Shown here: one piece after another, positions 1,383 to 15,363 of the stretch | Layout of the letters: each line of letters begins with the position of its first letter | Numbering within the stretch: position 1 is the stretch's first letter | Source of the DNA: an uncultured Gammaproteobacteria bacterium | GTDB taxonomy: Bacteria > Patescibacteriota > Patescibacteriia > Veblenbacterales > UBA10138 | Reading direction: 5' to 3' | DNA length: 64,000 nt | Assembly (NCBI GenBank): GCA_964453605.1 | Contig: CAYVOI010000001.1 | Coordinates: 102,276-166,275, forward strand | The notes under the pieces: generated by a model | What the model saw: the letters and a program-made list of their open reading frames with translations, nothing else | Databases searched by the model: none | What the model was told of the DNA's origin: nothing | Program-made: the position numbers and the translations under genes

Positions 1383-1826
1383 ATGGAGCAGTTCGTGGTA
1401 CCACAGTTTATAGATGTAGAGGATAAAATCATCGGACCTCTAACGGTGCGGCAGTTTATCATTATTATGGTGGTAGGCTTCTTCGTCTTCCTCGAGTTTC
1501 GGCTGGCCACGCTGGGTTTCTTTATTGTGGAAGCTGTGCTGAGCCTAGCAATTGGTGGGCTGTTCGCTTTTGGTAAGTTCAACGGCATGCCGTTCCACTA
1601 CTTTTTAGTGAACCTAGTGCAAACGCTCCGACGCCCTAAGCTGAGGGTGTGGCAACGCACTATTAGTACCTCGGACGTTGAGGAAGCGGTGCACCCGCCG
1701 GCTGAACTCGTGCGCGCCACGCCGCCGGCGCCAGCTAAGCCACTGCTCCAGGAGTCACGACTGCAGCAGCTGACGCTACAAGTTGATACCGGTGGTTCCT
1801 ACCACCCCGAAGAAGAGCCTAAGTAA
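1383..1826 (+). CDS. PrgI/VirB3-like small membrane protein of type IV secretion systems
   Basis: 147 aa, directly upstream of VirB4. N-terminal segment PQFIDVEDKIIGPLTVRQF is followed by a two-helix hydrophobic hairpin (IIIMVVGFFVFLEF...FFIVEAVLSLAIGGLFAF). This is typical of PrgI/VirB3-family proteins. Confidence 0.5.
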   Translation: MEQFVVPQFIDVEDKIIGPLTVRQFIIIMVVGFFVFLEFRLATLGFFIVEAVLSLAIGGLFAFGKFNGMPFHYFLVNLVQTLRRPKLRVWQRTISTSDVEEAVHPPAELVRATPPAPAKPLLQESRLQQLTLQVDTGGSYHPEEEPK

Positions 1827-1902: not shown

Positions 1903-2595
1903 ATGGCAAAAAAAGGTAAAGCCAAACCCAAGAAACCAAAGGCCGGTCCGCCCACCAGCTCGTACCTCGAGATTGCTGAAATTCACGATAACTGCGTGGT
2001 CATGAAAGACGGCACGCTCAGGGCCCTGTTCTTGTGCTCGTCGGTGAACTTTGCCCTGAAGAGCGAGGACGAGCAGAACGCCACCATTCAGGCCTACGTG
2101 AGCTTTTTGAACTCACTCGATGCCCCGCTCCAAATTGTGGTGCAATCGCGCAAGCTTAACATCGACGGCTACCTCAGTAAGCTCGAAGCTATGGAGAAGA
2201 GCCAGGTGAACGAGCTCCTGCGAGTGCAAACCTCGGAGTACCTGGCCTACATTCGTGAGCTCATTAGCTTAGGCGACATCATGACCAAGCGGTTCTACGT
2301 CGTCGTGACCTACGACCACCGGTCAGACAAGCGCCGTAGCTTCTGGCGCCGCTTGCTCTCTGTTTTCACGGCGGCAGCCAGCATCAAACTGTCGCGCGAC
2401 GAGTTTGCCCGCTACGCCGAGGCGCTGGAGCGCCGCGCCGGCTACATCGTGTCTGGCCTGACCTCCATGGGCCTCAAAGTTGCCAGGCTCGACACCCAAG
2501 GCCTGATAGAGCTCTACTACACTACCTACAACCCCGAGCTTAGGGAGCGCCAGAAGCTGGTTGAGCTCGACAAGCTCCAGGTAGGTGCCAGCTAA
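1903..2595 (+). CDS. VirB4/TrbE N-terminal domain, encoded as a separate ORF (split gene or frameshift)
   Basis: The motif VVMKDGTLRALFLCSSVNFALKSEDEQ matches the conserved start of VirB4-family ATPases (vl.kDGsl.a.f.l.G.dfe..sdee). The ORF stops at TAA 2593-2595, overlapping the next ORF's start at 2585 in the +1 frame. Confidence 0.55.
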   Translation: MAKKGKAKPKKPKAGPPTSSYLEIAEIHDNCVVMKDGTLRALFLCSSVNFALKSEDEQNATIQAYVSFLNSLDAPLQIVVQSRKLNIDGYLSKLEAMEKSQVNELLRVQTSEYLAYIRELISLGDIMTKRFYVVVTYDHRSDKRRSFWRRLLSVFTAAASIKLSRDEFARYAEALERRAGYIVSGLTSMGLKVARLDTQGLIELYYTTYNPELRERQKLVELDKLQVGAS

Positions 2596-4483
2596 GCGTA
2601 CCGTACGTATGGCCATTACTGCCCGACAAGCTAGCGCTGAGCTGCAGCGTCCGGTGAGCACCCTGCCCCAGCCGGAAGAGCTTCCGCCCGCCAGCGAAAA
2701 AGAACTGCTGGAGGCCGAGCGCCTGCTCCGCGAAGGTTCGGTCAGGGTTCGTGATATCATCGCCCCCGCCAGCTTAAAGGTTACCCCCGATCACCTTGAG
2801 CTCAATGGGCTCTGGCTCCGGACGCTCTTCGTTATGACCTACCCCCGTTACATTTCGGTGGGCTGGTTTGCGCCCATTATCAACCTCAACGCCACCTTAG
2901 ACGTCAGTATGTTCTTCTACATGGTACCGTCGGAGATAATTTTGAAGCAGCTCAGGAACCGGGTGGGTGGCATTGAGGCGCAAATTGTAGCCGACCACGA
3001 AAAGGGTGCCCCCCGTGACCCTATTCGCGAAACCGCGCTTCGTGACATCGAGCAGCTCAGGGATTCGCTCACCCAGGGCACCGAGCGCTTTTTCCAGGTG
3101 GCCCTCTACGTCACGCTCTACGCTAAGGACAAGACCGAGCTCGACAAGCTGACGGAGGAGGTGGAGTCTATCTTCGGCTCCAAGCTGGTGTACTCCCGCC
3201 GGGCGCTCTGGCAAACTGAACAAGGGTTCAACTCCACGCTACCGCAAGCCACCGACGACCTGCAGATCTACTTCAACATGAACACCAGCCCGGCGGCTTC
3301 GAGCTTCCCCTTTATTTCCTCCGAGCTCACCTCGGACAGCGGCATTCTCTACGGCATCAACCGGCACAACAACTCACTCATTCTGTTTGACCGTTTTAGC
3401 TTGCAGAACGCCAACATGAGCGTGTTCGCCACGAGTGGCGCCGGTAAGAGCTACGCTGTGAAGCTCGAGGTGCTCAGGAGCCTCATGATGGGGACCGACG
3501 TTATCATCATCGACCCTGAAATGGAGTACAAGCACCTCAGTGAGGCGGTCGGAGGTGCTTACGTTAACATCTCGTTGAATTCAGAGTCTAAGATAAATCC
3601 GTTTGACCTGCCGCGACCAGTGGGTGACGTGAACACTGGTGACATTATCCGCTCGGCTGTGATAACCCTGAAAGGCCTGATGCGCTTAATGCTCGGGAGC
3701 TTAACCCACGTAGAGGATTCGCTTATCGACCGGGCACTCCTTGAAACCTACGCCAAGAAAGACATTACCCCGGCATCGGACCTCTCTAAAGTTGAAGCGC
3801 CGGTGATGGCCGACTTCCAGGAAGTGTTAGGTGGTATGCAGGGCGGTGAAGATTTGGCGCTCCGTTTGAAAAAGTACACCGAGGGTACGTTCGCTGGCCT
3901 CTTCAACAGCCCTACGAATGTTGACGTCAAAAACCAGTTGGTGGTGTTCTCAGTCAGGGACTTGGAAGATGAGCTCAGGCCCATCGCTATCTACACCATT
4001 GTGAACTACATTTGGAACGTGGTGCGGAGTGAGCTCAAGAAACGCTTACTCGTTATTGATGAGGCGTGGTGGCTGATGCAGAACGAGGACAGCGCTAAGT
4101 TCATTTTCGCGCTCGTGAAGCGCTGCCGTAAGTACTACCTCGGGGTGACCACCATTACGCAAGACGTTAACGACTTCTTAACCAGCCCTTATGGCCAGGC
4201 TATTGTGAACAACTCGGCGTTGCAGCTCTTGCTCAAGCAGTCACCCGCTGGCATAGACCTGGTGGTAAAAACGTTCCTCCTCACCGAGGGCGAAAAGTAC
4301 TTGCTCCTCGAGTGCGGCGTAGGTGAGGGCATTTTCTTTGCCGGCTCCAAGCACGCGGCTATTAAGGTGGTGGCCTCCTACACCGAGGACCAGCTCATAA
4401 CGAGCGACCCCCGGCAGCTCCTCGAAATTGAACAGGCCAAGAAAGAGTTTGAGGCCAGCCTCAAAGAACCGGACATTGGTTAA
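2585..4483 (+). CDS. virB4: VirB4/TrbE/CagE-family type IV secretion ATPase (core and C-terminal part)
   Basis: Walker A FATSGAGKSYAVK and Walker B LLVIDEAWWLM, where DEAW is the VirB4 hallmark. Also IIIDPEMEY and TITQDVNDF. With the upstream fragment the total is about 860 aa, typical for VirB4. Confidence 0.85.
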   Translation: MPAKRTVRMAITARQASAELQRPVSTLPQPEELPPASEKELLEAERLLREGSVRVRDIIAPASLKVTPDHLELNGLWLRTLFVMTYPRYISVGWFAPIINLNATLDVSMFFYMVPSEIILKQLRNRVGGIEAQIVADHEKGAPRDPIRETALRDIEQLRDSLTQGTERFFQVALYVTLYAKDKTELDKLTEEVESIFGSKLVYSRRALWQTEQGFNSTLPQATDDLQIYFNMNTSPAASSFPFISSELTSDSGILYGINRHNNSLILFDRFSLQNANMSVFATSGAGKSYAVKLEVLRSLMMGTDVIIIDPEMEYKHLSEAVGGAYVNISLNSESKINPFDLPRPVGDVNTGDIIRSAVITLKGLMRLMLGSLTHVEDSLIDRALLETYAKKDITPASDLSKVEAPVMADFQEVLGGMQGGEDLALRLKKYTEGTFAGLFNSPTNVDVKNQLVVFSVRDLEDELRPIAIYTIVNYIWNVVRSELKKRLLVIDEAWWLMQNEDSAKFIFALVKRCRKYYLGVTTITQDVNDFLTSPYGQAIVNNSALQLLLKQSPAGIDLVVKTFLLTEGEKYLLLECGVGEGIFFAGSKHAAIKVVASYTEDQLITSDPRQLLEIEQAKKEFEASLKEPDIG

Positions 4484-4503
4484 CGTAATTTCCCCCGTAC
4501 CCT

Positions 4504-5064: not shown

Positions 5065-5082
5065 CTATTTTTCTTAGGTTAT

Positions 5083-5112
5083 ATTCTAATATTCCTAGGA
5101 ACATTGGAGTAA
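5083..5112. promoter_or_regulatory. operator-like repeat copy 1 containing the perfect palindrome TTCCTAGGAA, overlapping the promoter of the ArsR-like gene
   Basis: ATTCTAATATTCCTAGGAACATTGGAGTAA. A TATACT -10 hexamer follows about 3 bp downstream (about 5115-5120) and the gene ATG is at 5128. Confidence 0.45.
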
Positions 5113-5127
5113 TGGTATACTGTATTT

Positions 5128-5397
5128 ATGCAGAGCTACCGAAGTCTTGAGCGTCTGGTGAGAGGGTTCGCCAGTCATCGTCGAATTGAGATTATGGTGC
5201 TGCTGGGACGTGGGCTGGCGCTTACGGTGTTCGATGTGGCCGATAGGCTACGTATCAATTTTCGTACTGCCTCGGAACACCTGCGCCGTTTGTACACCGC
5301 CGGATTAGTCGGCAAGCGTAATCGTGGCGCGGCGGTAGAACATACGCTCACCGAGCAGGGGAGAGTTATTCTAAAGTTCCTAAGAACATTGGAATAA
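5128..5397 (+). CDS. ArsR/SmtB-type winged-helix transcriptional regulator
   Basis: 89 aa. HRRIEIMVLLGRGLALTVFDVADRLRINFRTASEHLRRLYTAGLV matches the ArsR HTH pattern (H..R..IL..L...E..V.EL.......S.HL..L...G.V). Confidence 0.6.
   Translation: MQSYRSLERLVRGFASHRRIEIMVLLGRGLALTVFDVADRLRINFRTASEHLRRLYTAGLVGKRNRGAAVEHTLTEQGRVILKFLRTLE
5368..5397. promoter_or_regulatory. operator-like repeat copy 2 (26/30 identical to copy 1) at the 3' end of the regulator gene, 16 bp upstream of the next ORF
   Basis: ATTCTAAAGTTCCTAAGAACATTGGAATAA. It encodes the regulator C-terminus and its stop codon, and immediately precedes the ATG at 5413. Confidence 0.45.
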
Positions 5398-5412
5398 GGT
5401 TTTTGAGATTGT

Positions 5413-5940
5413 ATGGCTGAGCAGGTACAAGCAGACACAACTGAAGACCTGGTTGAGCAAGCGCCGGCAGAGAGCGTTGAGCAACGTAATGAGCGTGAGC
5501 TCACGGAAACCCGCGCTAAGGCCAGCGTATTAGAGCGCGCACTTAAACTTGAGACAACGGGCGTCGACTCGCTCGACCAAGCAGCTAATAAAACTTCGCA
5601 GCAGTGGCTTGATGACACCAAGCTGGCGCTGCTGCCGCTGTTCTACCTCTACCTGCCGCTCTTGGCCATTTTTGTGATAGTCGTGATTGAGCTCATGCTA
5701 CCACTGTGGCGCAGCTCGTGGACTCTCCCTCTCTGGCGCAAGGTGGTGTACTGGGTCTACATTGTACTGTTTGTATTCCTGACCATAACAATCCTCGGGG
5801 CCCTGGCCTACCTCTACAAGCACCCCGACAAGTTTTGCACCTTGGTGTTGGACGGTACGTGGTGGGGGGCCGTGCCTGGGGTTAAGCAGGCCGGGTGCAG
5901 TGTTTTTGGTTGGTTGTTCAATTTGTTCAAGCCCGGCTAG
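5413..5940 (+). CDS. membrane protein: acidic N-terminal region plus three or four TM helices
   Basis: Acidic or coiled N-terminus, then LALLPLFYLYLPLLAIFVIVVIELMLPLW and VVYWVYIVLFVFLTITILGALAYLY. No known motif. Confidence 0.45.
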   Translation: MAEQVQADTTEDLVEQAPAESVEQRNERELTETRAKASVLERALKLETTGVDSLDQAANKTSQQWLDDTKLALLPLFYLYLPLLAIFVIVVIELMLPLWRSSWTLPLWRKVVYWVYIVLFVFLTITILGALAYLYKHPDKFCTLVLDGTWWGAVPGVKQAGCSVFGWLFNLFKPG

Positions 5941-5972
5941 GAATTTTTGAGCTGAGCGGGTATGATTAAGCT

Positions 5973-7262
5973 ATGAGGCAACGTTTGAGCGCAGCTGTGG
6001 TCGGTAGCATAGCCCTGGGGCTGTTCTCGGCAGCACTCTTAGCACCAGCGCCGGCTGGCGCCGTTTCATGCCAGTGTTTTGAGGCAGCAGCAGATACCCA
6101 GAGTAACGTTGCGGTACCTATTAATGGTGGTAACCCCTACTGTGCCCAGGTTACCTCGATTACTGATTGTAGTCCGAAACATTTCGGTTTGCAGTCACAG
6201 CGGATTGAATCCACTAGCGATTTTGGCTTTGGTACTACCTATACGACCTCCTGTCTTAGCTACCGCGATAATGCCTGCAAAATACTGGTGGGGAGCGTCG
6301 CTGACCCCCGTTCAATATTCAACCCCTGTTGGACCAAAGACCAGTGCCAGGCTGCGGATGGTGATTTTGATGACAGTGGCAAAGACTCTCCGAGCTGTGA
6401 ACCGTTTGCGGGTCAGCCAACGGCCCGGTGCTTTGTGAAACCACCACTCATTAAACTGCAAATCCCTATCCCTGGGCTGGGGGACACGGTTCAGGGCGGG
6501 TTCCCTGAGTACCTAGCCGCGTTCTATAAGTTTTTTGTGGCTCTTCTCGCCGTAGCTTCTGTAGTCATGGTGATGTGGGGTGGGTTCAAGCGCATTATGG
6601 CCGTAGGCAGCCCGGAAAAAATAAAAGACGCCAACGACGCCATAGCCGGTGCTATCACCGGTTTGGTTCTCGTGCTCATTTCTTACTCACTGCTGGCGCT
6701 CCTTAACCCACGGCTGGTTACCTCTACCAGGCTTACCTTGGACAAGGTAAAAACGCAACTGTTCGGTAACTGGTGCCCCGCTACTGACCCGACAAACAAA
6801 AACATACAGTACCAGTGTGGCGATAAGGCTACCATAGAGGGTCAAGCCTGTGTGGGGAGCGCGTGTCCCATAAGCGGTACGGGCTGCTACAAGGTGAGTG
6901 ATTCCGGGGGAGTTGATAGTACGGGCCGCTTTACTGACTACCAGTGCTTAACGCCAGAAGACGCTTGCAATAGCGTACTACGAGGTACGGCGCTGAGAAT
7001 TCATGGTGCCAAAGATAACTATAGCGGCTACCAGGCGGTTTGCAGCAGCTTTAACCGCTCTATCGCAGGTCAGCAGTATTTGTGTCTATGGCAAGGTGGG
7101 GCGGAAAAATGCCAGTGGTATACACCTGCCAATATCGCGCAGGTGTGTGCTGATCATTCAGGTTGCTCGGCATTCAGTGCCGGTGGTAATTTGAAGGGTT
7201 TTTGTACATTTGATTTGTGTAATCGGGGCTGTAAGATTGATGGAGCTGCTTGTAAACCCTAG
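5973..7262 (+). CDS. secreted cysteine-rich protein with a central VirB2/TrbC-like hydrophobic hairpin module (paralog 1)
   Basis: Signal peptide MRQRLSAAVVGSIALGLFSAALLAPAPAGA. About 30 Cys residues flank a 65-aa module YKFFVALLAVASVVMVMWGGFKRIMAVGSPEKIKDANDAIAGAITGLVLVLISYSLLALLNPRL. This module is shared with the ORF at 9247. Confidence 0.55.
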   Translation: MRQRLSAAVVGSIALGLFSAALLAPAPAGAVSCQCFEAAADTQSNVAVPINGGNPYCAQVTSITDCSPKHFGLQSQRIESTSDFGFGTTYTTSCLSYRDNACKILVGSVADPRSIFNPCWTKDQCQAADGDFDDSGKDSPSCEPFAGQPTARCFVKPPLIKLQIPIPGLGDTVQGGFPEYLAAFYKFFVALLAVASVVMVMWGGFKRIMAVGSPEKIKDANDAIAGAITGLVLVLISYSLLALLNPRLVTSTRLTLDKVKTQLFGNWCPATDPTNKNIQYQCGDKATIEGQACVGSACPISGTGCYKVSDSGGVDSTGRFTDYQCLTPEDACNSVLRGTALRIHGAKDNYSGYQAVCSSFNRSIAGQQYLCLWQGGAEKCQWYTPANIAQVCADHSGCSAFSAGGNLKGFCTFDLCNRGCKIDGAACKP

Positions 7263-7265
7263 TCT

Positions 7266-8516
7266 ATGTTCGCAAACCTTGATCGCAAGAAAGTCTTGTT
7301 GGTAGCTGGCGTAGCGCTGGCGGTAGCAGTTCTGGTTTGGCTGGTGCTTAGGCTCTTAGCTAAACCACAACCCCCGCAGCCGCCCGTGAACCAGAACCTC
7401 AACCGCCCGGTGAACTTTCCGGTTGGTGTGAACGGCAACCTGAACGTTAGCCCAATCGGTGGCACCAACTTGCCGCTCGCTAACGGTAATGTGAATGTAC
7501 CTGGTGGACCTGGCGGTAGCCCGGTAGCTAGCGGCGGGCCTACGGCTACGGCGGCTATTACCTCCGGCCCGGCGCTGGCCCCCACCGCTGGCGCGGCTGG
7601 CTCCGTACGCTACTACAACCCCACCGATGGTAAGTTCTACGAACTTCTGGGCGGTACCGCGCATACCTTGAGCGACGCTTCGTACCCTGAGGCACAAAAC
7701 ATTACCTGGTCGCCACAGAAGAGCAGTGCTATTCTAGAGTTTCCCGATGGCGCTAAGGTGCTGTACGATTTTGACAAACACAAGCAGTTCACCTTACCCA
7801 AAGAAATGACCGAGTTTTCCTTTGCACCCGACGGACAGAAAATCGCTGGTAAGTACCTGGGTACCAACCCAGCTAACAACTGGATAACAACGGTGAACCC
7901 CGACGGCTCCGGCCTTACCGGGGTTGAGCCGATGGGAGAGAACGCCGACAAGGTGGAGGTAGCTTGGTCGCCCAATAACCAGGTGGTTGCCCTGTCGCGC
8001 ACCGGCGACCCGGCGGGCTTGTTCCAGCAGAACGTGCTCCTCATAGGGTTCCACGGCGAGAACTTTCGGCAGCTGACGGTCGACGGGCGTGGCTTTGACG
8101 CCCGCTGGACGCCCGATGGTAATCGGCTGCTGTACTCGGTTTACAGCGACACCACCAACTACCAGCCCACTCTCTACCTGGCCGATGCCAGTGCCGACCG
8201 CGTGGGGGCCAACAAGCAGGCGCTCCAGCTTAATACCTGGGTGGATAAGTGCACAGTTGAGGGCGGTGTGGCGTACTGTGCTGTGCCAACACAGCTGCCC
8301 CAGGGTGCCGCGTTCAGCCGCGAGCTAGCAGCCGGCACGCCCGATTACATTTACCGCATAGACCTGGCCACTGGCGGTACTACCTTGGTGGCTCAGCCGC
8401 TGGGGCAAAACGGTGCTGGGCTCACCGCCAGTAACCTGACCGTGGCTGGCGATGGCAGTATGCTCTACTTTACCGATAGCCAGGGAACCTTGCGGAGCGT
8501 GAAGCTAAAGCCGTAG
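7266..8516 (+). CDS. membrane-anchored TolB-like beta-propeller (PD40/WD40-like repeats) protein
   Basis: N-terminal TM anchor and a Pro/Asn-rich linker. Repeated units of the form W(S/T)PDG...(L/I)...: ITWSPQKSSAILEF, FSFAPDGQKIAGKY, VAWSPNNQVVALSR, ARWTPDGNRLLYSV. Confidence 0.55.
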   Translation: MFANLDRKKVLLVAGVALAVAVLVWLVLRLLAKPQPPQPPVNQNLNRPVNFPVGVNGNLNVSPIGGTNLPLANGNVNVPGGPGGSPVASGGPTATAAITSGPALAPTAGAAGSVRYYNPTDGKFYELLGGTAHTLSDASYPEAQNITWSPQKSSAILEFPDGAKVLYDFDKHKQFTLPKEMTEFSFAPDGQKIAGKYLGTNPANNWITTVNPDGSGLTGVEPMGENADKVEVAWSPNNQVVALSRTGDPAGLFQQNVLLIGFHGENFRQLTVDGRGFDARWTPDGNRLLYSVYSDTTNYQPTLYLADASADRVGANKQALQLNTWVDKCTVEGGVAYCAVPTQLPQGAAFSRELAAGTPDYIYRIDLATGGTTLVAQPLGQNGAGLTASNLTVAGDGSMLYFTDSQGTLRSVKLKP

Positions 8517-8579
8517 GTGGGCTGAAGCACTACCCGGTCTGTGTTCAGGCTCGGGCTGGTTTAGTGATATGATAGAGCT

Positions 8580-9227
8580 ATGGTGACTACCAGCTCTATG
8601 CTCCGCGTAATGCTGCTCGGTGTTGCGGTGGTGCTAGTGGTGGCGGTGTGGCAGCTCCGCCGAGAGAGTGCTCGCCTGAGCTACCAGCCAGCGCCGAGCG
8701 AGCAGGCTCAGCCCACCAAGCTGCCATCGCAAGTTACCGTTCTGCCGGCTGACCCGGTGCGGGGGGCGGCCACTGCACCACAAACGGTAGTGCTGTTTAG
8801 CGATTTCCAGTGTCCCTACTGTGCTGAGGTGGCACCCATCCTGGCTCAGGCCGTGGCCCAGAACGGTGGCAGGTGGAAGCTGGTGTGGAAAGACTTTCCT
8901 CTGCCCTCACACCCCGAGGCTCTGGCGGCGGCGGAGGCGGCCCAGTGCGCTGGTAGCCAAGGTCGGTTTTGGGAATACCACGACCAGCTGTTCCAGCGGC
9001 AAGCTACGCTCGGGCCCCAGCTCTACCAAGCTCTGGCGCTTGAGTTGAACCTCAGCCCCGAGCCATTCCAGCGCTGTCTGGCGCAGCACACCTTTAAGCC
9101 GTTCATTGAACACAGCCTGGCTGAGGGCGCAGCTATTGGCGTTGATGCCACTCCTTTTTTGGTGGTAGGTAGCAAGGTCTACCGTGGTACGTTTACGGCC
9201 GAGGAGCTAGCCCAGTTTTTGGAGTAA
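8580..9227 (+). CDS. DsbA-family thiol:disulfide oxidoreductase (thioredoxin fold, CPYC active site), membrane-anchored
   Basis: TM anchor MLLGVAVVLVVAVW. Active-site block VVLFSDFQCPYCAEVAP. C-terminal ATPFLVVGSKVYRGTFTAEELAQFL, typical of DsbA/DsbG-like proteins. Confidence 0.7.
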   Translation: MVTTSSMLRVMLLGVAVVLVVAVWQLRRESARLSYQPAPSEQAQPTKLPSQVTVLPADPVRGAATAPQTVVLFSDFQCPYCAEVAPILAQAVAQNGGRWKLVWKDFPLPSHPEALAAAEAAQCAGSQGRFWEYHDQLFQRQATLGPQLYQALALELNLSPEPFQRCLAQHTFKPFIEHSLAEGAAIGVDATPFLVVGSKVYRGTFTAEELAQFLE

Positions 9228-9246
9228 GCAGGGAGTTTATTGACCT

Positions 9247-10431
9247 ATGCAGGCTAACGTAAAGTTACTGGTTGCTCGCAGCGTCCTCTGTGTAGCCGCA
9301 CTGGGGTGGAGCGTGGCACCGTTGCTCCCGGTGTGGGCGGCTGTGCCCTGTTCACCTAAAGACGTGTGGCAGGTAAACGATTGTACGGGGATTACGTGCT
9401 GTGATGTCGGCTACGTTTGCCGAGCGCAGGATTATAAAAACGGCCGGGAGGGGACATTGTCGCAGCATATCTGTGAAGTGGCCCCACCAGCGGAACAAGA
9501 AGGTAGCAGCTCGGCCACTACCCCCCTGGAGTTCCAGCCCCAGGTAACCATCCCCGGTACCATTACCGTGGGGGGGCAGCAGGTTTCGTTCCGGCAAGGG
9601 CAGGGACTTGCCGTGACGGGTGATACCATTGCGCAGTACCTCGGGGTGTTCTATAAGTTTTTCATAGCCATGCTGGCCGTGGCCGCAGTTGTTATGGTGA
9701 TGTGGGGCGGGTTCAAGCGCATTATGGCGGTAGGTTCCCCGGAGAAGATTGCTGACGCTAACGATGCTATTGTCAGTGCCCTTACTGGTTTAGTGCTGGT
9801 GCTTATTTCCTATTCGCTCCTCAACCTCATTAACCCTAAGCTGACGAGCTTTAAAACCTTAGCCCTGACACCGGTGACGAGGATAGAGTTTGAAGATGTA
9901 GAGGCAGAGCAGATTGTAGCAGCGGCCACCCAGCCTAGCAGCGTGCCGCAGGTGGCTATTATCAGCGGCGCTAACATCAGCAACCCGGGTAACAAAATAG
10001 CCACCCTCCCGCTCATTACTGCCCTACAAGCTGCCGCGGCTGAGTTAGCTAAGCAGAACGTGTATGTGATTGTGACCTCTGGTACCAGAACAGTCGCCGA
10101 GCAAACCGCGCTCATCTTGAAGAACTGTATAAATCCACCAGGGTCTACTAGCTGCCATCCTAAACCCGGCGGGGTGGAGACGTGTCCACTGCCGGGGAAC
10201 AACCCCTTAAGCTGTCCCCACACCTCGGGCCAAGCGGTGGACGTGTGGGCGGCGCAGGGCAACAGCACGCCGATTTCGCAAAAGGCCTGCCAGGCTAATA
10301 AGCCCGCCTGCGAGCAAGACCCGGCCATGGCCGCACTCATTGCGGCTATGCGAGCACAGGGGTTTTGTAAGCTCGACAGCGAACCCTGGCACTTTGAACA
10401 GCCAGTGGTGTCGGCTGGCCGTTGTCACTAA
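9247..10431 (+). CDS. secreted cysteine-rich VirB2/TrbC-like hairpin protein fused to a C-terminal LAS/peptidase M15 (VanY-like zinc D,D- or L,D-peptidase) domain (paralog 2)
   Basis: Signal peptide. Module YKFFIAMLAVAAVVMVMWGGFKRIMAVGSPEKIADANDAIVSALTGLVLVLISYSLLNLINPKL. All three M15 signature blocks are present: SGTRTVAEQ (SGxRxxxxQ), HTSGQAVD (HxxxxxxD zinc ligands) and EPWHFE (EPWHF). Confidence 0.6.
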   Translation: MQANVKLLVARSVLCVAALGWSVAPLLPVWAAVPCSPKDVWQVNDCTGITCCDVGYVCRAQDYKNGREGTLSQHICEVAPPAEQEGSSSATTPLEFQPQVTIPGTITVGGQQVSFRQGQGLAVTGDTIAQYLGVFYKFFIAMLAVAAVVMVMWGGFKRIMAVGSPEKIADANDAIVSALTGLVLVLISYSLLNLINPKLTSFKTLALTPVTRIEFEDVEAEQIVAAATQPSSVPQVAIISGANISNPGNKIATLPLITALQAAAAELAKQNVYVIVTSGTRTVAEQTALILKNCINPPGSTSCHPKPGGVETCPLPGNNPLSCPHTSGQAVDVWAAQGNSTPISQKACQANKPACEQDPAMAALIAAMRAQGFCKLDSEPWHFEQPVVSAGRCH

Positions 10432-11786
10432 CTCCTATGTCACCACGTCTCAGCGCCGTGTACACCTGTTCGAACTGCGACGCCCAGTACCCCAAGTGGG
10501 TGGGGCGCTGTAGCCAGTGCGGCAAGTTTGGCACCGTGGCCACCGACCCCCAGGTAGTGGCGCGAGCTGCACCGCAAGCTGCAGGTTCTGCGCCAGCGGC
10601 CACCGTGTCACTCGGTAATTTGACGAATACGTACCACGGTAAACGTCAGGGTACGGGTTATGCCGAGGTGGACCGTGTGTTGGGCGGCGGGTTCGTGCCC
10701 GGCAGCGTAACACTTCTCAGTGGTGAGCCAGGGGTAGGCAAGTCCACACTCCTGCTTGCACTCGCCGAACGGTTACAAGCCCCCGTGCTTTACGCTTCAG
10801 GTGAGGAATCGGCCGAGCAGGTATCAGGCAGGCTTAAACGCTTGGGACTTGCCGGTTCTAAGCTCTCGTTTACTACCGAAACCAATGTGGGGAGCCTGAG
10901 CGCCACTGTCCGCCAGCTTAAACCAGCTCTACTGGTGATGGACTCGCTCCAAGCCGCGAGCTTGCCAGAGGAAACAGGGACCTCGGGTTCCCCTGCCCTG
11001 GTACGCGCTGCCCTGAGCGAACTGGTAACGTTGGCCAAAGGTACTAACGTGCCGGTGGTAGTGGTGGGGCACGTGACCAAGGCCGGGGTGGCAGCTGGGC
11101 CCAAGGCCATAGAGCACCTAGTCGATGTGGTACTGACCTTAGAGGGCGCGGAGCACCAGCCCTTACGGTTCCTGCGTGCCAGCAAGAACCGTTTTGGCGC
11201 TACTGACGAGGTGGGTGTGTTTGAAATGGGAGAGCAGGGGCTGGTAGAGGTTCAAAACCCCTCGGCACTATTCTTAAGTGAACGGCACCAGGGTGCAGGC
11301 TCTTGCATAACCGCGCTGCTTGAAGGTTCGCGGAGCTTGCTCTGCGAGGTGCAAGCGCTGGTTACACACTCACGTCAGAGCTACCCCAAGCGTGCCACCA
11401 CCGGGTTCGACGCTAACCGGCTGGAAGTGTTACTGGCTGTGCTCGGGGAGCGGGCGGGCGTGAAGCTGAACTATAGTGACGTGTATATAAACCTAGCCGG
11501 CGGTTTCCGCTCACGTGAGCCAGCGTTGGACCTGGCAGTTTGTATAGCGGTGGCTTCAGCTGCTACCAAGCGCCCGCTCCCTAAAGATTTAGTGGTGTTT
11601 GGTGAGGTTGGTTTAGGTGGCGAAGTGCGGCCGGTGGTGGGGGCCGAGCGCCGTCTGCAAGAGGCAGCGCGGTTAGGGTTTGTGCAGGCCCTGGTGCCGC
11701 AGGGGCTTAATGTTGAGCGACTACCCTCTGACCTAGCGCTCGTGCCGGTGAAAACCGTGAGTGAAGCCGTGGAGTGGATACGCTAG
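10422..11786 (+). CDS. radA: DNA repair protein RadA/Sms
   Basis: Zinc finger CSNCDAQYPKWVGRCSQCGKFG. Walker A GEPGVGKST. KNRFG motif. C-terminal Lon-protease-like domain. TTG start, with an alternative ATG at about 10437. Confidence 0.9.
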   Translation: MSLTPMSPRLSAVYTCSNCDAQYPKWVGRCSQCGKFGTVATDPQVVARAAPQAAGSAPAATVSLGNLTNTYHGKRQGTGYAEVDRVLGGGFVPGSVTLLSGEPGVGKSTLLLALAERLQAPVLYASGEESAEQVSGRLKRLGLAGSKLSFTTETNVGSLSATVRQLKPALLVMDSLQAASLPEETGTSGSPALVRAALSELVTLAKGTNVPVVVVGHVTKAGVAAGPKAIEHLVDVVLTLEGAEHQPLRFLRASKNRFGATDEVGVFEMGEQGLVEVQNPSALFLSERHQGAGSCITALLEGSRSLLCEVQALVTHSRQSYPKRATTGFDANRLEVLLAVLGERAGVKLNYSDVYINLAGGFRSREPALDLAVCIAVASAATKRPLPKDLVVFGEVGLGGEVRPVVGAERRLQEAARLGFVQALVPQGLNVERLPSDLALVPVKTVSEAVEWIR

Positions 11787-11789
11787 CGC

Positions 11790-12341
11790 ATGCGGTTACC
11801 TCGTAGTTTTTTTGCGCGCCCCACGCTCCGTGTAGCTCGTAGTTTGCTCGGGTGTGTGCTGTCGGTACGGCAGGGTGGCAGACTGCGGCGCGCTGTTATT
11901 GTGGAAACCGAGGCCTACGTTGGGCCAGGTGACCTAGCCTCGCACGCTTCGCGCGGACGCACCAAGCGTACTGAGGTTATGTTTGGCCGTCCGGGGTGCC
12001 TCTACGTCTACCTCATCTATGGTATGTACCACTGCGTGAACGTGGTTACCGAGCGGGTAGGTTACCCGGCCGCTGTGCTCATTCGGGCGGTTATACCGCT
12101 GCCGCGTCGAACGCAACCCAAGGTAGTGGCAGGCCCTGGTCGAGTCTGCCGGTACTTTGGTATTGATCGCCGTTTCAATACCGAGGACACAGCGACTAGC
12201 CGACGTGGTTGGTTCAGCCGCGGTCTGCGCCTACCGCCAGGCCAGGTGACGGCTCGAACACGAGTAGGGGTTGACTACGCCGGGCCGTGGCAGCACAAGC
12301 TGTGGCGGTTTGCACTCACGCCCGATGGTGTACGTAGGTAG
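11790..12341 (+). CDS. mpg: DNA-3-methyladenine glycosylase (Mpg/AAG family)
   Basis: IVETEAYVGPGDLASHASRGRTKRTEVMFGRPGCLYVYLIYGMYHCVNVV matches the AAG family core (ETEAY...D.ASH...G.T.R...MFG..G..YVY..YG...C.NVV). Confidence 0.8.
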   Translation: MRLPRSFFARPTLRVARSLLGCVLSVRQGGRLRRAVIVETEAYVGPGDLASHASRGRTKRTEVMFGRPGCLYVYLIYGMYHCVNVVTERVGYPAAVLIRAVIPLPRRTQPKVVAGPGRVCRYFGIDRRFNTEDTATSRRGWFSRGLRLPPGQVTARTRVGVDYAGPWQHKLWRFALTPDGVRR

Positions 12342-12396
12342 TGCCTGATCAGGCACTATGAAATGCCCCTGCCAAGAACAAATACCTTGGCAGGGG
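12341..12396. terminator. two stem-loops between convergent genes (bidirectional terminator region)
   Basis: Perfect 16-bp palindrome GTGCCTGATCAGGCAC. It is followed by an 11-bp stem hairpin CCCCTGCCAAG-aacaaatac-CTTGGCAGGGG. Confidence 0.5.
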
Positions 12397-12419
12397 TGAA
12401 TCTTTGGGGAAGGGGTGGG

Positions 12420-12818
12420 TTAGTGTCGGCCGTTGTGGCCGTTCGTGCAGTATGCGCGGGCGTCATCAAGAAGACAATCGAGTTCTGTGCGGATTTCGTG
12501 GTCTTCGTCGGATTTGCCAGCCGGTTTTTCCCGCGCAATCGCGTGGGTCATGGCGTTCAGGAACCGCCCACGATTTTCTATCTCAATCACGTCAGCGTAC
12601 TTGCTGAGCCTGATTCTGTCCTTGGCCAGGGCAGCGGCGACAATTTGTTCTTCGATCTCTGTTTTCACCTGCAGCTTCAGCAGGTGACCACATTGGTGGA
12701 GCGTTGCTCCGAGTGTGCCGACCTTGCGACGGCCGACGTACAGTTCTGAGGTGCCGGTGTGTAGCTCGACAACTTGAGCGCCGTAGCTACCCACCTTGCG
12801 GATTTCAGGTTCGTTCAT
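12420..12818 (-). CDS. hypothetical protein, weakly PRC-barrel-like
   Basis: 132 aa with a strong SD (AGGAGG) before the ATG. Segment IRKVGSYGAQVVELHTGTSELYVGRRKVGTLGATL resembles PRC-barrel G..V....G..VG.. repeats. The assignment is weak. Confidence 0.35.
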   Translation of the reverse strand: MNEPEIRKVGSYGAQVVELHTGTSELYVGRRKVGTLGATLHQCGHLLKLQVKTEIEEQIVAAALAKDRIRLSKYADVIEIENRGRFLNAMTHAIAREKPAGKSDEDHEIRTELDCLLDDARAYCTNGHNGRH

Positions 12819-13093
12819 GATAGTCCTCCGTATGACGTTGAATGGGTTGGGGGGTTCAGTCAGCTATCAGTACCCAGGAGACTATACGGTGGCTAACTTG
12901 AGTTTAGTTTCATCTCAAACTCTCCTATAATGTTATTTTGGTTTGTGGGGTTGTGCCGGGTGAATTACGTGCTTTATGACGCTGTTAAGGTTCTTTGAGG
13001 AGGCCCGGGCCGGCAATCAATTAGGCCCCCACATGCTTGTATATTAGGCAATAGTAAACCTGTAGCGGTCAGCCGTCAAGTACCCACGGTGGA

Positions 13094-15199
13094 TTACTCA
13101 GGGTGAAAGGCGAGCTTAGCTATGCGGTTTTTAAGTTCTGGCCAGGGTTTTAGAGTTGAGTCCTGTTTGAGCACCAGATCAGTAGCCTGCTGGACTGTCT
13201 TCAGTAACCCCTGGTCAGCCAGTGAGGCAAAACGTAGGCTGCTCCAGCCAGACTGTAGTTCTCCCACAATATCACCCGGGCCCCGCTGTTTCAGGTCAAA
13301 TTCCGCTAGGTCAAAGCCACTATGGTGCCTTACCAAGGCATCAAGGCGTGCCAAGCTCTTCGGGTCGGTGGATTCGGTGAGGAGTAGGCAGTAGCTCTGC
13401 AGGTTTGACCTGCCCACGCGACCACGGAACTGGTGCAGCTGCGCCAGGCCAAAACGCTCGGCGCTCTCAATGGCTATAACCGTGGCTTGGGGAACATCTA
13501 CTCCAACCTCGATAACAGACGTGGTGACAAGTATGGGCGTATGTCCATCGACAAACTGTTTCATAGCGCTAGCTTTGGCGCGGGCAGGTAGTTTGCCGTG
13601 CAGCAGCCCTAAGGTAAGTTCAGGGAACACCTCGCGGCTTAGGCGTTCGTGCTCAAGTGTCACCGCGCGGACGCCTAAAACATCGGACTCCTCAATAGTT
13701 GGGCAGACAATGAACACGCGGTGGCCGCGTGCAACCTCTTGCCGCATGAAGTCGTACGCCCTAGTGCGCTCATTTGGTTGTACCATTCGGGTGGTAATGA
13801 GTTTCCGACCAGCCGGTAGGTGGTTTATGGTTGAAAGTTTGAGGTTACCATAGAGGGTAAGCGCCAGGGAACGGGGAATAGGAGTAGCCGAGAGGGAAAG
13901 GAAGTGGGGAATAGCGCGTTGGTCGCGGTGTAGCAGCTGGCGCTGCTCTACCCCAAAACGGTGCTGTTCGTCTACCACAATCAGCCCAAGCTGCTTGAAG
14001 CGGACCGACGCCTGCAGGACAGCGTGGGTGCCGATGAGTATATCAACTTGTCCTTGCTTGAGTTTGATTTTTAGTGACTTATCAGATACCACTACGCCCT
14101 GGTTCGCCACACACTGTTTGGAAGCCGTGAGGAGCCCTAAGGTAACGTGGGGCAGATTAGTAAACAGCCGGCTAAGGGTAGCAGCGTGCTGGTCAGCCAG
14201 AATCTCGGTGGGGGCAATAAGTACAACCTGCCAGCCAGCCGCTGCGGCGTTCAAGGCGGCTAACCCCGCCACAATAGTTTTGCCTGACCCTACATCGCCT
14301 TGGAGCAGCCGGTACATGGGCTCGGAGTTCCCTAGGTCTTTGATAATTTCCCAAGCCGCCACTCTCTGATCGTCAGTTAGCCGCCAGGGTAATGTATCCA
14401 CGAACTGTTTTAGGCCTGACCAGAGTAGAATGGCAGGTGCCTTAGTGCCTGCCGCAGGCAGGTGAGCCAGTTTTAGTTTCAGGCTCATCAGGAACAGCTC
14501 GTCAAAGCCTAGGCGGCGGCGAGCTGGAGCAATGTCGGGCCAACCTTTGGGTTGGTGCAGGTGCTCAAGGGCTGTGGGGAGGCTGGGGAGTTTTGTTTGT
14601 TGCAGGACTTCAGCTGGCAGGTAGTCGGTGACCTGCTCACAGAGCGGCAGGAGTCGGGAGATAGTGCTGCGCAGCTTGGTTTGGGTGAGCTGGGCAGTGG
14701 AGGGGTAAATAGGTACCAAGCGGCCGGTGTGCACACCACCGCGGGCGACCGGCTCCCAGGTCGGGTGTTCGAGTTGCAGCCCGTAGCTTGAGTCAGTGAG
14801 ATGGCCACTGAGGTACACTTCATCGCCCACTCGGAGGCTGTCTTTGAGGTAGGGCTGGTTAAACCACACGGCTTTGATAGTGCCCGTGCCATCGGTAAAA
14901 AGCACCTCGGTTACCTGAAGTTTGCGCCGAAAGCTCCGGCGTGAACTTACGAGCTGTACCTTGGCTCGGAGTGTGACCTGTTCACCTACCTTAAGGTTTT
15001 TGATGGCTACGGTTTTTGAGAAATCGTCGTACCGTGTGGGTACGTGGTGTAGCAGGTCTGCTATCGTGGCAAGCCCCAGGCGCTTGAGGCGCGCCGCGGT
15101 AGAAGGGCCAATACCGGGTACGTGGGTTACGGGACTCTGTGGGGAGAGCATAGTAATTGGTACTTCACCATTATGCCGCGCCTGGTAGCAAAAAACCAC
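13094..15199 (-). CDS. recG: ATP-dependent DNA helicase RecG
   Basis: Wedge/OB N-terminus. Helicase motif I LLQGDVGSGKT, motif II VVDEQHRFGV, and GTHAV. Confidence 0.9.
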   Translation of the reverse strand: MVFCYQARHNGEVPITMLSPQSPVTHVPGIGPSTAARLKRLGLATIADLLHHVPTRYDDFSKTVAIKNLKVGEQVTLRAKVQLVSSRRSFRRKLQVTEVLFTDGTGTIKAVWFNQPYLKDSLRVGDEVYLSGHLTDSSYGLQLEHPTWEPVARGGVHTGRLVPIYPSTAQLTQTKLRSTISRLLPLCEQVTDYLPAEVLQQTKLPSLPTALEHLHQPKGWPDIAPARRRLGFDELFLMSLKLKLAHLPAAGTKAPAILLWSGLKQFVDTLPWRLTDDQRVAAWEIIKDLGNSEPMYRLLQGDVGSGKTIVAGLAALNAAAAGWQVVLIAPTEILADQHAATLSRLFTNLPHVTLGLLTASKQCVANQGVVVSDKSLKIKLKQGQVDILIGTHAVLQASVRFKQLGLIVVDEQHRFGVEQRQLLHRDQRAIPHFLSLSATPIPRSLALTLYGNLKLSTINHLPAGRKLITTRMVQPNERTRAYDFMRQEVARGHRVFIVCPTIEESDVLGVRAVTLEHERLSREVFPELTLGLLHGKLPARAKASAMKQFVDGHTPILVTTSVIEVGVDVPQATVIAIESAERFGLAQLHQFRGRVGRSNLQSYCLLLTESTDPKSLARLDALVRHHSGFDLAEFDLKQRGPGDIVGELQSGWSSLRFASLADQGLLKTVQQATDLVLKQDSTLKPWPELKNRIAKLAFHPE

Positions 15200-15322: not shown

Positions 15323-15363
15323 ACAATTTCAAGTTTTTCTTTGGTGGCATTAAATTATGAAAT

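Follow-up and report, generated by a model that had tools for sequence, protein, structure and literature searches.

A VirB2-like membrane hairpin fused to an M15 peptidase domain: a probable wall-opening enzyme of a chromosomal T4SS in Patescibacteria

Known T4SS wall hydrolases and the fusion locus

T4SSs are widespread in Patescibacteria, often at a privileged chromosomal site. Their function has been called 'completely unknown', and in the single species tested the system is essential for epibiotic growth (PMC11665869). The pilus of a Patescibacteria T4SS has so far not been visualised in any case (PMC12857230). In a survey from 2025 most genomes with VirB2-like pilins had no recognisable VirB1, and the authors concluded that pilus biogenesis may not need VirB1 (PMC12102498). 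The known VirB1 homologues of Gram-positive systems are all membrane-anchored and carry extracellular CHAP, SLT, MUR or LytM domains (PMC12857230). In Southlakia epibionticum the protein SEML1_0007, which is 1113 aa long, adjoins virB4 and is essential in Tn-seq, ends in a Hedgehog/DD-peptidase fold, and its nearest AFDB neighbour is a 'Peptidase M15B domain-containing protein' (Table S2 of PMC10633639). It has been considered a likely VirB1 substitute (PMC12102498). The pilin array SEML1_0014-0019 of the same species is essential as well (PMC10633639).

The gene described here lies in a 64,000-nucleotide stretch of DNA, the whole of which is called the window below, and encodes a pilin-like hairpin protein with a C-terminal LAS/M15 zinc peptidase domain (Table 1). 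Like PrgK (pCF10), TraG (pIP501), TcpG (pCW3), Orf14 (Tn916) and CwlT (ICEBs1), it shares a monoderm-type cluster with virB4, and like these enzymes its product appears to be membrane-tethered with the catalytic domain predicted outside, the presumed job being local wall remodelling. By predicted topology and cluster membership the protein is a membrane-anchored, extracytoplasmic putative hydrolase in a T4SS cluster, in agreement with the rule given for monoderms (PMC12857230). It differs from the Gram-positive enzymes in three respects: instead of a single N-terminal TM helix, a two-helix hairpin of the VirB2-like type (PF18895) serves as the anchor, the LAS/M15 catalytic fold lies outside the CHAP/SLT/MUR/LytM set, and a variable, Cys-rich ectodomain is added at the N-terminus. 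It shares no sequence homology with VirB1, and since the catalytic domain is LAS/M15 and not SLT, CHAP, NlpC-P60 or LytM, the protein can only be a functional analogue and not a member of that family. The original prediction had stressed that both the peptidase fold and its fusion partner are unlike those of VirB1-type hydrolases. This holds for M15 on a hairpin, whereas an M15/LAS domain beside a Patescibacteria virB4 has a precedent in SEML1_0007. Compared by annotation, SEML1_0007 is likewise a Patescibacteria T4SS-cluster protein ending in a LAS fold, but it is much larger, its annotation reports no pilin domain, and it sits directly beside virB4 and not at the dsbA-radA position taken by the fusion gene.

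Architecture of the fusion protein

Table 1. Features of the fusion gene and of the surrounding cluster (positions in the window)
Feature	Position	Strand	Evidence or remark
PrgI (VirB3-like) gene	1383..1826	+	PrgI PF12666, E 4.6e-9; upstream of virB4
TraC-like gene	1903..2595	+	orthologous genes carry PF26593 TraC-like; upstream of virB4
VirB4-type T4SS ATPase	2585..4483	+	NCBIfam conju_CD1110, 351 bits vs cut-off 325; TraG P-loop, E 3.4e-28
Paralogous pilin-hairpin protein with two Cys-rich ectodomains (ORF 5973)	5973..7262	+	PF18895, 30.0 bits
Membrane-anchored PD40 (TolB-like) beta-propeller protein	7266..8516	+	PD40, E 5.4e-8
DsbA-like thiol-disulfide oxidoreductase, directly upstream of the fusion gene	8580..9227	+	Thioredoxin_4, E 7.8e-25; DSBA, E 3.7e-14
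Pilin-hairpin / M15 peptidase fusion, whole gene	9247..10431	+	ATG start, 394 aa plus stop
Predicted signal peptide (aa 1-31, cleavage between PVWA and AVPC)	9247..9339	+	hydrophobicity and AF2 helix; cleavage site inferred from sequence
Variable Cys-rich N-terminal ectodomain (aa 32-95)	9340..9531	+	Cys positions; pLDDT <50 (AF2)
Conserved beta-rich pre-hairpin segment (aa 96-124, FQPQVTIPG...GG motif)	9532..9618	+	orthologue alignment, AF2
VirB2-like two-helix membrane hairpin (aa 125-199) with short basic loop, GGFKRIMAVGSPEK	9619..9843	+	PF18895, AF2
Flexible linker (aa 200-235)	9844..9951	+	pLDDT <50 for aa 204-230 (AF2)
LAS / M15 zinc peptidase domain (aa 236-394), 8 Cys	9952..10428	+	orthologue Pfam matches, PDB-sequence profile
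Motif 1, SGTRTVAEQ (aa 278-286; R281, Q286)	10078..10104	+	invariant in 38/38; R281 corresponds to VanX R71
Motif 2, HTSGQAVD (aa 325-332; putative zinc ligands H325, D332)	10219..10242	+	align to VanX H116, D123
Motif 3, EPWHFE (aa 379-384; predicted base E379, third putative zinc ligand H382)	10381..10398	+	align to VanX E181, H184
radA, downstream neighbour	10422..11786	+	RadA-type domains; listed TTG start overlaps the fusion-gene stop

NCBI and Logan both contain a protein identical to the gene product (P0001), encoded on a contig of 876 kb, and its layout is common to 38 orthologue ORFs: a signal peptide, a variable Cys-rich ectodomain, the T4SS_pilin hairpin, a disordered linker and the C-terminal LAS/M15 domain. 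Hydrophobic segments (Kyte-Doolittle) were found at aa 5-33, 131-160 and 171-197, the first of them belonging to the leader, for which AF2 models a helix at 2-26; the other two are joined by the loop KRIMAVGSPEK. From these three segments and the K/R loop both ectodomains are predicted to lie outside the membrane. The N-terminal half thus turned out as originally described, with a hydrophobic leader, six Cys between aa 35 and 76 (35, 46, 51, 52, 58, 76) and two hydrophobic helices matching PF18895. Conservation along the chain is very uneven. Mean identity to the orthologues is just 14% in the N-terminal Cys-rich domain and 22% in the linker, and it is highest in the hairpin, with a mean of 42% and a maximum of 76%. 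The pre-hairpin segment is modelled by AF2 with strands at 94-123. P98 is invariant in it, and 17 orthologues keep the PQVTIPGSITIGG consensus; the same motif recurs in the consensus of the ORF 5973 family.

The hairpin is a true match to the pilin family PF18895. Residues 126-194 score 28.6 bits with this Pfam model (T4SS_pilin), whose gathering cut-off is 26.6, and 17/17 orthologues match it as well, whereas the NCBIfam model of an ICE pilin-like conjugal transfer protein is matched by the protein at E 1.6e-7 and 30.9 bits, which is under the cut-off of 40. AF2 models the two helices at 125-160 and 165-195 with a pLDDT of ~83. The claim that this module is shared with ORF 5973 is borne out by 70% identity over 90 aa (E 3e-37) and, at the DNA level, by 76% over 175 nt. 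The conservation of the hairpin also goes far beyond what a plain anchor would need. Compared with VirB2/TrbC-type pilins, the leader, the two hydrophobic helices, the short basic loop, the PF18895 match above cut-off and the location in a T4SS cluster are all alike, and the hairpin is homologous (27-42% identity) to the small pilins adjoining virB4 in Saccharibacteria (loci L074-L083). Those pilins, however, have ~100-140 aa and consist essentially of the hairpin only, whereas in the 394-aa fusion protein the hairpin is internal and is flanked by an N-terminal ectodomain of ~90 aa and by ~195 aa of linker and enzyme. With the hairpin as query an exhaustive HMMER search returned 10,861 representative proteins at E<=1e-3, while the hairpin alone gave no match in a word-indexed homologue search. 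Hairpins also occur as covalent tandem arrays, with four hairpins and an SLT domain in P0036 and eight hairpins in P0090, which suggests side-by-side hairpin packing. The ORF 5973 product itself (AF2 mean pLDDT 81) has no recognisable enzyme domain, and a fold search in the PDB gave no informative match for its Cys-rich domains.

For the enzyme domain the three signature blocks are present in the order in which they had been reported. Taken singly, the sequence remains under the Pfam cut-offs of both VanY (PF02557, 15.5 bits vs 25) and Peptidase_M15 (PF01427, 17.9 vs 27), and a phmmer search with it in the PDB gave E ~1. As single-sequence searches were too weak, the orthologue alignment and a domain profile were used instead. 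VanY is matched by 14/17 orthologues (best E 5.1e-11) and Peptidase_M15 by 13/17, and among PDB sequences the profile finds VanX (3.8e-8) and VanY (7.7e-6) as well as LdcB/YodJ, Ply500 and LysB4. By these sequence profiles we could confirm that residues ~236-394 belong to the LAS/M15 superfamily despite the sub-cut-off score of the single sequence, which is the superfamily named in the original prediction. The domain has the LAS (Hedgehog/DD-peptidase) fold, and the top Foldseek matches are the phage endolysins Ply500 and LysB4. R281, H325, D332, E379 and H382 align to R71, H116, D123, E181 and H184 of VanX (1r44). The proposed zinc ligands H325, D332 and H382 are conserved together with E379 and R281 in all 38/38 orthologue ORFs, and Q286, G328, A330, W381 and E384 are equally invariant. 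Both outcomes that had been named in advance as refuting the prediction, a failed domain placement and variable zinc ligands, have thereby been checked and did not occur.

Compared with VanX, VanY/VanXY, LdcB, Ply500 and LysB4, the domain forms a distinct Cys-rich subfamily. Unlike the known LAS/M15 enzymes it has an insertion of ~30 residues (C-x8-C-x9-C-x9-C-P-H) in front of the first putative zinc ligand as well as a C-terminal Cys that is conserved, and it is predicted to be extracytoplasmic and tethered to a pilin hairpin. At least five of its eight Cys are present in at least 34/38 orthologues, and together with the adjacent DsbA gene they fit an extracytoplasmic protein. The nearest non-fused relatives are stand-alone M15 proteins of 200-270 aa, the best of them at E 2.4e-13 compared with 1e-37 to 1e-61 within the fused family, so that fused and stand-alone proteins are more than 20 orders of magnitude apart in E-value.

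The gene cluster and the exchangeable domain before radA

A cluster of genes on one strand, running from PrgI, TraC-like and VirB4 over small ORFs to the pilin paralogue, PD40 and DsbA, ends with the fusion gene, and radA follows. The original reading of the module as T4SS pilin-like agrees with the virB4 gene found 4.8 kb upstream on the same strand. This order recurs on orthologue contigs at 41-55% identity. In 30/38 orthologue loci the PD40 gene is found upstream, a DsbA gene is present in 28/38 (directly adjacent in at least 21), and radA is adjacent (<700 bp) in 24/38; together with recG these are the invariant neighbours of the fusion gene, and its dsbA-radA position is conserved across class-level divergence. 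VirB4 lies within +/-10 kb in 13/38 loci and not within 10 kb in the other 25/38, many of the contigs being short. In many lineages the link to the T4SS hence comes from hairpin homology and not from adjacency. A scan of positions 1-16000 for promoters and terminators found no more sites than in shuffles and therefore does not inform us about the limits of the operon. The window also contains murI and glmM, from which it follows that the organism makes its own peptidoglycan. The M15 domain gave a weak tblastn echo at 22793-23140, which was rejected as chance; the locus is the glutamate racemase gene (murI).

In other Patescibacteria the slot between PD40-DsbA and radA holds the same hairpin with another C-terminal domain, which can be 3D, SLT, phage lysozyme, M23 or NlpC/P60, or, by a weak match, a glucosaminidase. 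Peptidase_C39_2, CHAP, Amidase_5 and further 3D fusions were found as partners of the hairpin in protein searches only, that is without gene context. Among the 100 closest hairpin representatives, Pfam assigns 11 SLT, 8 VanY, 3 C39_2, 2 M15_4, 2 3D, 2 NlpC/P60, 1 Amidase_5 and 1 CHAP. One genome (L038) has a similarly related VirB4 (82% identity), yet 3D replaces M15 at the slot. By sequence comparison, at least five other peptidoglycan-hydrolase families, all unrelated, can take the place of the C-terminal domain at this position, apart from the weak glucosaminidase match, and what these unrelated folds on the hairpin have in common is the cutting of peptidoglycan. Here the parallel to the Gram-positive VirB1-type enzymes extends to the folds, with SLT, M23 and NlpC/P60 at sister slots and CHAP on close relatives of the hairpin. 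The putative functional analogy to VirB1, PrgK and TcpG, put forward in the original prediction, is strongly supported by the interchangeable enzyme domain at a syntenic slot. SLT, M23 and NlpC/P60 are also folds of classical T4SS hydrolases (PMC12857230). In the literature searched, which took in few subscription journals, we found no description of pilin-hydrolase fusions.

The likely role of the fusion protein and competing explanations

We assign a probability of roughly 0.6 to the explanation that the fusion gene encodes a dedicated peptidoglycan hydrolase of the chromosomal Gram-positive-type (MPF-FATA-like) T4SS of a Patescibacteria bacterium (ABY1/Veblenbacteria-like). By analogy, the protein is most likely a VirB1-function domain on a VirB2-type anchor. 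It probably represents the missing wall-opening enzyme of the T4SS, because in related genomes this position is taken by the hairpin in combination with other enzymes that cut the wall. After Sec export and cleavage of the leader, the two hydrophobic helices would enter the membrane as a hairpin whose basic loop faces the cytoplasm, so that the enzyme at the C-terminus as well as the variable Cys-rich domain at the N-terminus would come to lie outside. The hairpin might then dock the protein into or beside the pilin/channel assembly of the T4SS and so bring it into physical association with the system. A flexible tether of ~35 residues could let the zinc LAS peptidase, possibly disulfide-stabilised via the adjacent DsbA, reach the wall. 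If the enzyme is active, local cleavage of peptide stems or cross-links would allow the apparatus to span the cell's own peptidoglycan.

The enzyme could also be directed outwards. It is possible, although we regard it as distinctly less probable than even, that the hairpin co-polymerises with VirB2-like subunits into a T4SS pilus, on which the Cys-rich N-domain and the M15 domain, displayed on a minor or tip subunit, would attack the peptidoglycan of the bacterium that carries the epibiont and breach its wall, so that material could be taken up or delivered. The homology to the stand-alone pilins beside virB4 in Saccharibacteria and the essential pilin array of S. epibionticum (PMC10633639) speak for this, as do the tandem arrays, a hairpin far better conserved than its flanking domains, the predicted position of both termini outside the membrane, and an N-domain that is hypervariable (14% identity) as would be expected of a host-contact surface; reviews have speculated about the T4SS or pilus of Patescibacteria as a conduit to the host (PMC12857230). 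On the other hand, a Patescibacteria T4SS pilus has never been observed, and a 160-residue domain plus a 90-residue N-domain may be too bulky for a VirB2-type lattice if the subunit is not rare. Moreover, only two large confident PF18895 proteins lie within the window with no obvious major pilin nearby, and the sequence is without any sign of host targeting. Further-reaching and rather unlikely in our opinion is the idea that the VirB2-like hairpin does polymerise as a genuine pilin and the T4SS filament displays swappable wall-cutting heads (M15, SLT, lysozyme, M23, NlpC/P60, 3D and others) to drill the host wall, with hypervariable, Cys-rich and adhesin-like N-domains recognising the host. 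If this were true, the essential T4SS of epibionts would be a host-wall-penetrating device for feeding or uptake.

Outside secretion altogether, the protein might be a membrane-anchored housekeeping or scavenging M15 enzyme. As a carboxypeptidase of the VanY/LdcB type or a D-Ala-D-Ala dipeptidase of the VanX/PcgL type it would serve to mature the producer's own wall or to harvest D-Ala, and its two-helix anchor would do no more than resemble a pilin. We consider this improbable. The stand-alone nature of the nearest non-fused M15 relatives, the public annotation of the orthologues as 'D-alanyl-D-alanine carboxypeptidase family protein' and the loci without VirB4 within 10 kb (25/38) would agree with it. 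However, the anchor scores above the Pfam cut-off of T4SS_pilin and shares 70% identity with the adjacent pilin paralogue, the fused M15 is a subfamily distinct from the stand-alone proteins, and in other genomes the slot is occupied by glycosidases (SLT, lysozyme, 3D) or by endopeptidases (M23, NlpC/P60). Since such enzymes cannot replace a carboxypeptidase or dipeptidase, the contents of the slot count against a housekeeping role. A catalytically dead adhesin, whose LAS domain binds the wall without cutting it, would have a precedent in the inactive VirB1 homologues of Gram-positive conjugation systems that were proposed as adhesins (PMC12857230). It appears very improbable here, as 38/38 orthologues keep all five residues aligned to the catalytic and zinc-binding positions, which marks an active site that is being maintained. 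Still harder to believe is a remnant of a phage or plasmid lysis module, in which a holin-like two-TM segment would be fused to an endolysin. Two TM segments with M15, lysozyme, M23 or NlpC/P60 do resemble phage lysis cassettes, and Ply500 and LysB4 are endolysins, but the chromosomal position between dsbA and radA is kept across class-level divergence. A PHROG search found no holin or endolysin, its sole match being a family of unknown function on the hairpin (E 0.0015), and tblastn of the fusion protein against 50,697 phage and 72,556 plasmid records found nothing. On these missing PHROG and phage matches an origin from a phage lysis module was rejected, and on the missing plasmid match that from a plasmid-borne conjugation module.

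Returning to the preferred explanation of a dedicated T4SS hydrolase, our comparison of sequences offers a different answer to the VirB1 gap noted above: ABY1-type lineages, which make up a large part of the phylum, may build the wall hydrolase into pilin-like proteins as a swappable C-terminal domain. With this a concrete and assayable candidate enzyme is now tied to the T4SS of Patescibacteria, and for ultrasmall cells that exploit hosts the question is raised whether it is the epibiont's wall that is cut or that of the host. PF18895 in combination with a wall-hydrolase domain might further serve as a simple genomic marker by which hundreds of annotations as 'D-Ala-D-Ala carboxypeptidase' or 'hypothetical' could be corrected; the orthologues of the fusion protein carry a label of the former kind in public annotation.

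Domains of the fusion protein

The fusion protein, an identical copy of which is known from NCBI (876 kb contig) and a Logan assembly, has three hydrophobic segments by Kyte-Doolittle analysis (aa 5-33, 131-160 and 171-197). Six of its cysteines lie within aa 35-76, making the N-terminal part Cys-rich as anticipated, and eight within aa 294-393. The hairpin matches Pfam T4SS_pilin (PF18895; aa 126-194, 28.6 bits against a cut-off of 26.6), and an NCBIfam ICE pilin-like model covers the same stretch (E 1.6e-7). With its 70% identity (E 3e-37) to the hairpin of the paralogue at 5973, this bears out the original prediction of a VirB2-like two-helix module common to both proteins. Recent gene conversion between the two hairpins is ruled out, since their DNA is just 76% identical.

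The three M15/VanY-type motif blocks are all present in the predicted order (Table). As a single sequence the protein remained below the Pfam M15 cut-offs (VanY E 0.015, Peptidase_M15 E 0.0027), and phmmer against PDB sequences gave E about 1 only. Because of these weak scores orthologues were collected and 17 aligned: T4SS_pilin was matched by all 17, VanY by 14 (best E 5.1e-11) and Peptidase_M15 by 13. A profile of the C-terminal domain only matched VanX 1r44 among PDB sequences (E 3.8e-8), and also VanY, YodJ/LdcB, Ply500 and LysB4 at 1e-5 to 1e-4. Hence the claim of an M15/VanY-type C-terminal domain holds. In the VanX alignment R281, H325, D332, E379 and H382 correspond to VanX R71, H116, D123, E181 and H184. 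In VanX, R71 serves as the transition-state arginine, H116, D123 and H184 bind the zinc and E181 is the catalytic glutamate. An AlphaFold2 model from the 17-sequence alignment had a pLDDT of about 90 for aa 231-394; two long helices at aa 125-160 and 165-195 reached about 83, and values were <50 at aa 26-103 and aa 204-230. Structure comparison of the hairpin alone returned generic helical-hairpin matches only.

Conservation and genomic neighbourhood

When each GTDB species was scanned through a single genome, 77 loci were obtained, nearly all from Patescibacteria (Veblen-, Uhr-, Magasanik-, Kerfeld-, Falkow-, Moran-, Komeili- and Buchananbacteria). Our orthologue set comprises 38 distinct ORFs with hairpin and M15 motifs in one frame, including the window ORF and one metagenome contig. 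R281, Q286, H325, G328, A330, D332, E379, W381, H382, E384 and C393 are invariant in all 38, and C303, C323 and C374 are kept in 37. Conservation of the putative zinc ligands had been set beforehand as a check, and H325, D332 and H382 are all among the invariant residues. Mean identity to the window protein is 14% in the N-terminal ectodomain, 22% in the linker, 37% in the M15 domain and 42% (maximum 76%) in the hairpin. That the hairpin is the best-conserved part is unexpected for a plain membrane anchor and points to a specific protein-protein role.

The cluster in the window is tightly packed on the + strand, with the fusion gene between a DsbA-like gene and radA. The same gene order was found in contigs with orthologues of just 41-55% identity, and PD40, DsbA and radA are the tightest partners.

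Features of the cluster and of the fusion protein, with neighbour counts over the 38 orthologue loci (lower bounds, as many contigs are short)
Feature	Position	Strand	Remarks	Loci with neighbour
Unannotated ORF	15-1379	+		
PrgI	1383-1826	+		
TraC-like gene	1903-2595	+		
VirB4, CD1110 family	2585-4483	+	351 bits, cut-off 325	13/38 within +/-10 kb (9 upstream, 4 inverted downstream)
186-aa ORF		+	between VirB4 and ArsR-type regulator	
ArsR-type regulator		+	between 186-aa ORF and 175-aa membrane ORF	
175-aa membrane ORF	5413-5940	+	between ArsR-type regulator and pilin paralogue	
Pilin paralogue	5973-7262	+		
PD40 (TolB-like) propeller	7266-8516	+	membrane-anchored	30/38
DsbA-like oxidoreductase	8580-9227	+		28/38
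Fusion gene	9247-10431	+	ATG start, 394 residues	
Motif SGTRTVAEQ	aa 278-286	+	translation of 9247-10431	
Motif HTSGQAVD	aa 325-332	+	translation of 9247-10431	
Motif EPWHFE	aa 379-384	+	translation of 9247-10431	
radA	10422 onward	+	listed TTG start overlaps last codons and stop of fusion gene (10422-10431)	26/38
Methylpurine glycosylase	after radA	+		
recG	beyond fusion gene	opposite		28/38

The overlap with the fusion gene, and a downstream distance of less than 700 bp in at least 24 of the 38 loci, suggest that radA, a recombination gene, is co-transcribed with the T4SS module. That T4SS genes go together with radA and recG in ABY1 has been noted previously (PMC12102498).

The 175-aa ORF matches T4SS_pilin only faintly, at aa 107-134 (E 0.045), and is conserved in related loci at 32-34% identity; it could be a small pilin that has degenerated, or a piece resembling VirB3/VirB6. 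The pilin paralogue has two Cys-rich ectodomains that model confidently (AF2 mean pLDDT 81), but Foldseek found no solved fold for them (best E 0.57). Its hairpin shows a weak resemblance to the conjugation pilin 8dfu of Aeropyrum pernix (TM 0.61, E 2.5).

Exchange of the hydrolase domain

Ten hairpin proteins without M15 motifs, occupying the slot between DsbA and radA in PD40-DsbA-[hairpin]-radA loci, were scanned against Pfam. The hairpin is kept, and in seven of the ten a recognisable wall-hydrolase domain follows it at the C-terminus: 3D (L038), SLT (L056), Phage_lysozyme (L058, L059), Peptidase_M23 (L060), NlpC/P60 (L063) and, as a weak match, Glucosaminidase (L065). In L062, L064 and L070 Pfam found the pilin domain only. 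PD40 and DsbA, the most faithful neighbours, are kept at most slots with another hydrolase domain. The VirB4 of L038 is 82% identical to that of the window, as close as those of M15-bearing relatives, and the swap between M15 and 3D is therefore evolutionarily recent.

Searched exhaustively with HMMER, the 86-residue hairpin matched 10,861 representatives with E<=1e-3, of which 699 had E<=1e-10. Among the best 100 of the 10,861, 95 match T4SS_pilin and about 30 a wall-hydrolase family too: SLT (11), VanY (8), C39_2 (3), M15_4, 3D and NlpC/P60 (2 each) and Amidase_5, CHAP and C70 (1 each). Peptidase_C39_2 and further 3D fusions to the hairpin came from a protein search without genomic context. 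The function that the unrelated folds share is peptidoglycan cleavage, and the pattern is one of non-orthologous domain displacement, with the pilin-type scaffold kept constant. That unrelated wall hydrolases swap on the same scaffold is the best argument at present for the M15 domain being a wall hydrolase that serves whatever the hairpin belongs to.

About 20 of the best 150 hairpin matches have 2-8 hairpin copies. Two of the matched proteins are 'poly-pilins': P0036 carries an SLT-like lytic transglycosylase domain behind four T4SS_pilin hairpins in tandem, and P0090 has eight tandem hairpins in a single polypeptide.

A possible wall hydrolase of the T4SS

The analysis shows the domains and fold of the protein, its conserved active site, the synteny and the exchange of enzyme domains; from these we infer activity, bond specificity, T4SS docking and target wall as follows. 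The leader-cleaved N-domain and the C-terminal enzyme would lie outside the membrane and the KR-containing loop inside. VirB2/TrbC pilins have the same topology, with termini outside and loop inside. Oxidative folding outside the cell would fit the eight enzyme-domain cysteines and the conserved adjacent DsbA. The hairpin might dock the fusion protein, along with the paralogue, into the T4SS membrane assembly, and on a roughly 35-residue disordered tether the zinc peptidase could cleave stem peptides nearby and so let the machine cross the wall. Every VirB1 homologue known from Gram-positives is anchored in the membrane and has its catalytic domain outside the cell (PMC12857230), a rule that the fusion protein matches in its predicted topology. 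According to Quinonero-Coronel et al., most Patescibacteria with VirB2-like pilins have no recognisable VirB1 (PMC12102498), a gap that the hairpin-hydrolase fusion would fill.

It might also be possible that the protein is a housekeeping carboxypeptidase or dipeptidase, as VanX/VanY/LdcB are the top matches and VirB4 adjacency is incomplete; however, this is contradicted by glycosidases replacing M15 at the same slot. An inactive adhesin is contradicted by an active site invariant across 38 orthologue ORFs, and a phage or plasmid lysis module by the conserved chromosomal position and the lack of PHROG holin or endolysin, phage or plasmid matches. A further possibility is that a pilus displays the hairpin-borne enzyme to attack the host wall. 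In favour of it are the homology of the hairpin to the small virB4-adjacent pilins of Saccharibacteria, which are essential in Southlakia epibionticum, the covalent tandem arrays that hairpins also form, including the one ending in SLT, and the hypervariable N-domain. Such a pilus has not been observed, though, and a pilin lattice might have no room for bulky appendages.

The T4SS of Patescibacteria, its MPF-FATA affinity, VirB2-like pilin arrays and the radA/recG neighbourhood were known before (PMC12102498), as was the fact that S. epibionticum depends on its T4SS as an essential system (PMC10633639). In the latter, the large protein SEML1_0007 beside virB4 ends in a LAS-fold domain (PMC10633639 Table S2). 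Orthologues carry the database label 'D-alanyl-D-alanine carboxypeptidase family protein', and in the open-access full texts searched neither a fusion of VirB2-like hairpin and wall hydrolase nor the interchangeability of the hydrolases was found described. We therefore rate the protein as a probable membrane-tethered T4SS wall hydrolase of new form, not a categorically new system; the observation behind the original prediction is confirmed and its interpretation supported. A wall hydrolase in a T4SS cluster is in itself no surprise to a specialist. The pilin-scaffold architecture with modular enzyme heads, unreported in the open-access literature checked, is phylum-wide and directly testable, and it bears on the question of what the essential T4SS of the epibionts does and whose wall is breached.

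Three consecutive genes of the window (21213-24329, +) are glmM, murI and, next to murI, a D-isomer 2-hydroxyacid dehydrogenase-like gene; the presence of murI and glmM means that the organism itself produces peptidoglycan and its precursors. Many loci are titled 'uncultured Gammaproteobacteria bacterium' and one 'Bdellovibrionales' (L007, L010, L013, L014, L019, L025, L026 and others). These contigs carry Patescibacteria-type T4SS/PD40/DsbA/radA synteny with VirB4 70-88% identical, and the titles look like taxonomic mislabels of MAGs. A patch at 14001-16100 with a G+C of 0.49, against about 0.55-0.60 nearby, may be acquired DNA; it adjoins a tRNA (16129-16200) and contains a lysine/asparagine-rich ORF of 237 aa (15364-16077, -) with no Pfam match on record. 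A LOOT RNA (Rfam RF03000) was matched at full length at 59353-59467 (+), scoring 88.2 bits where the gathering score is 46.4.
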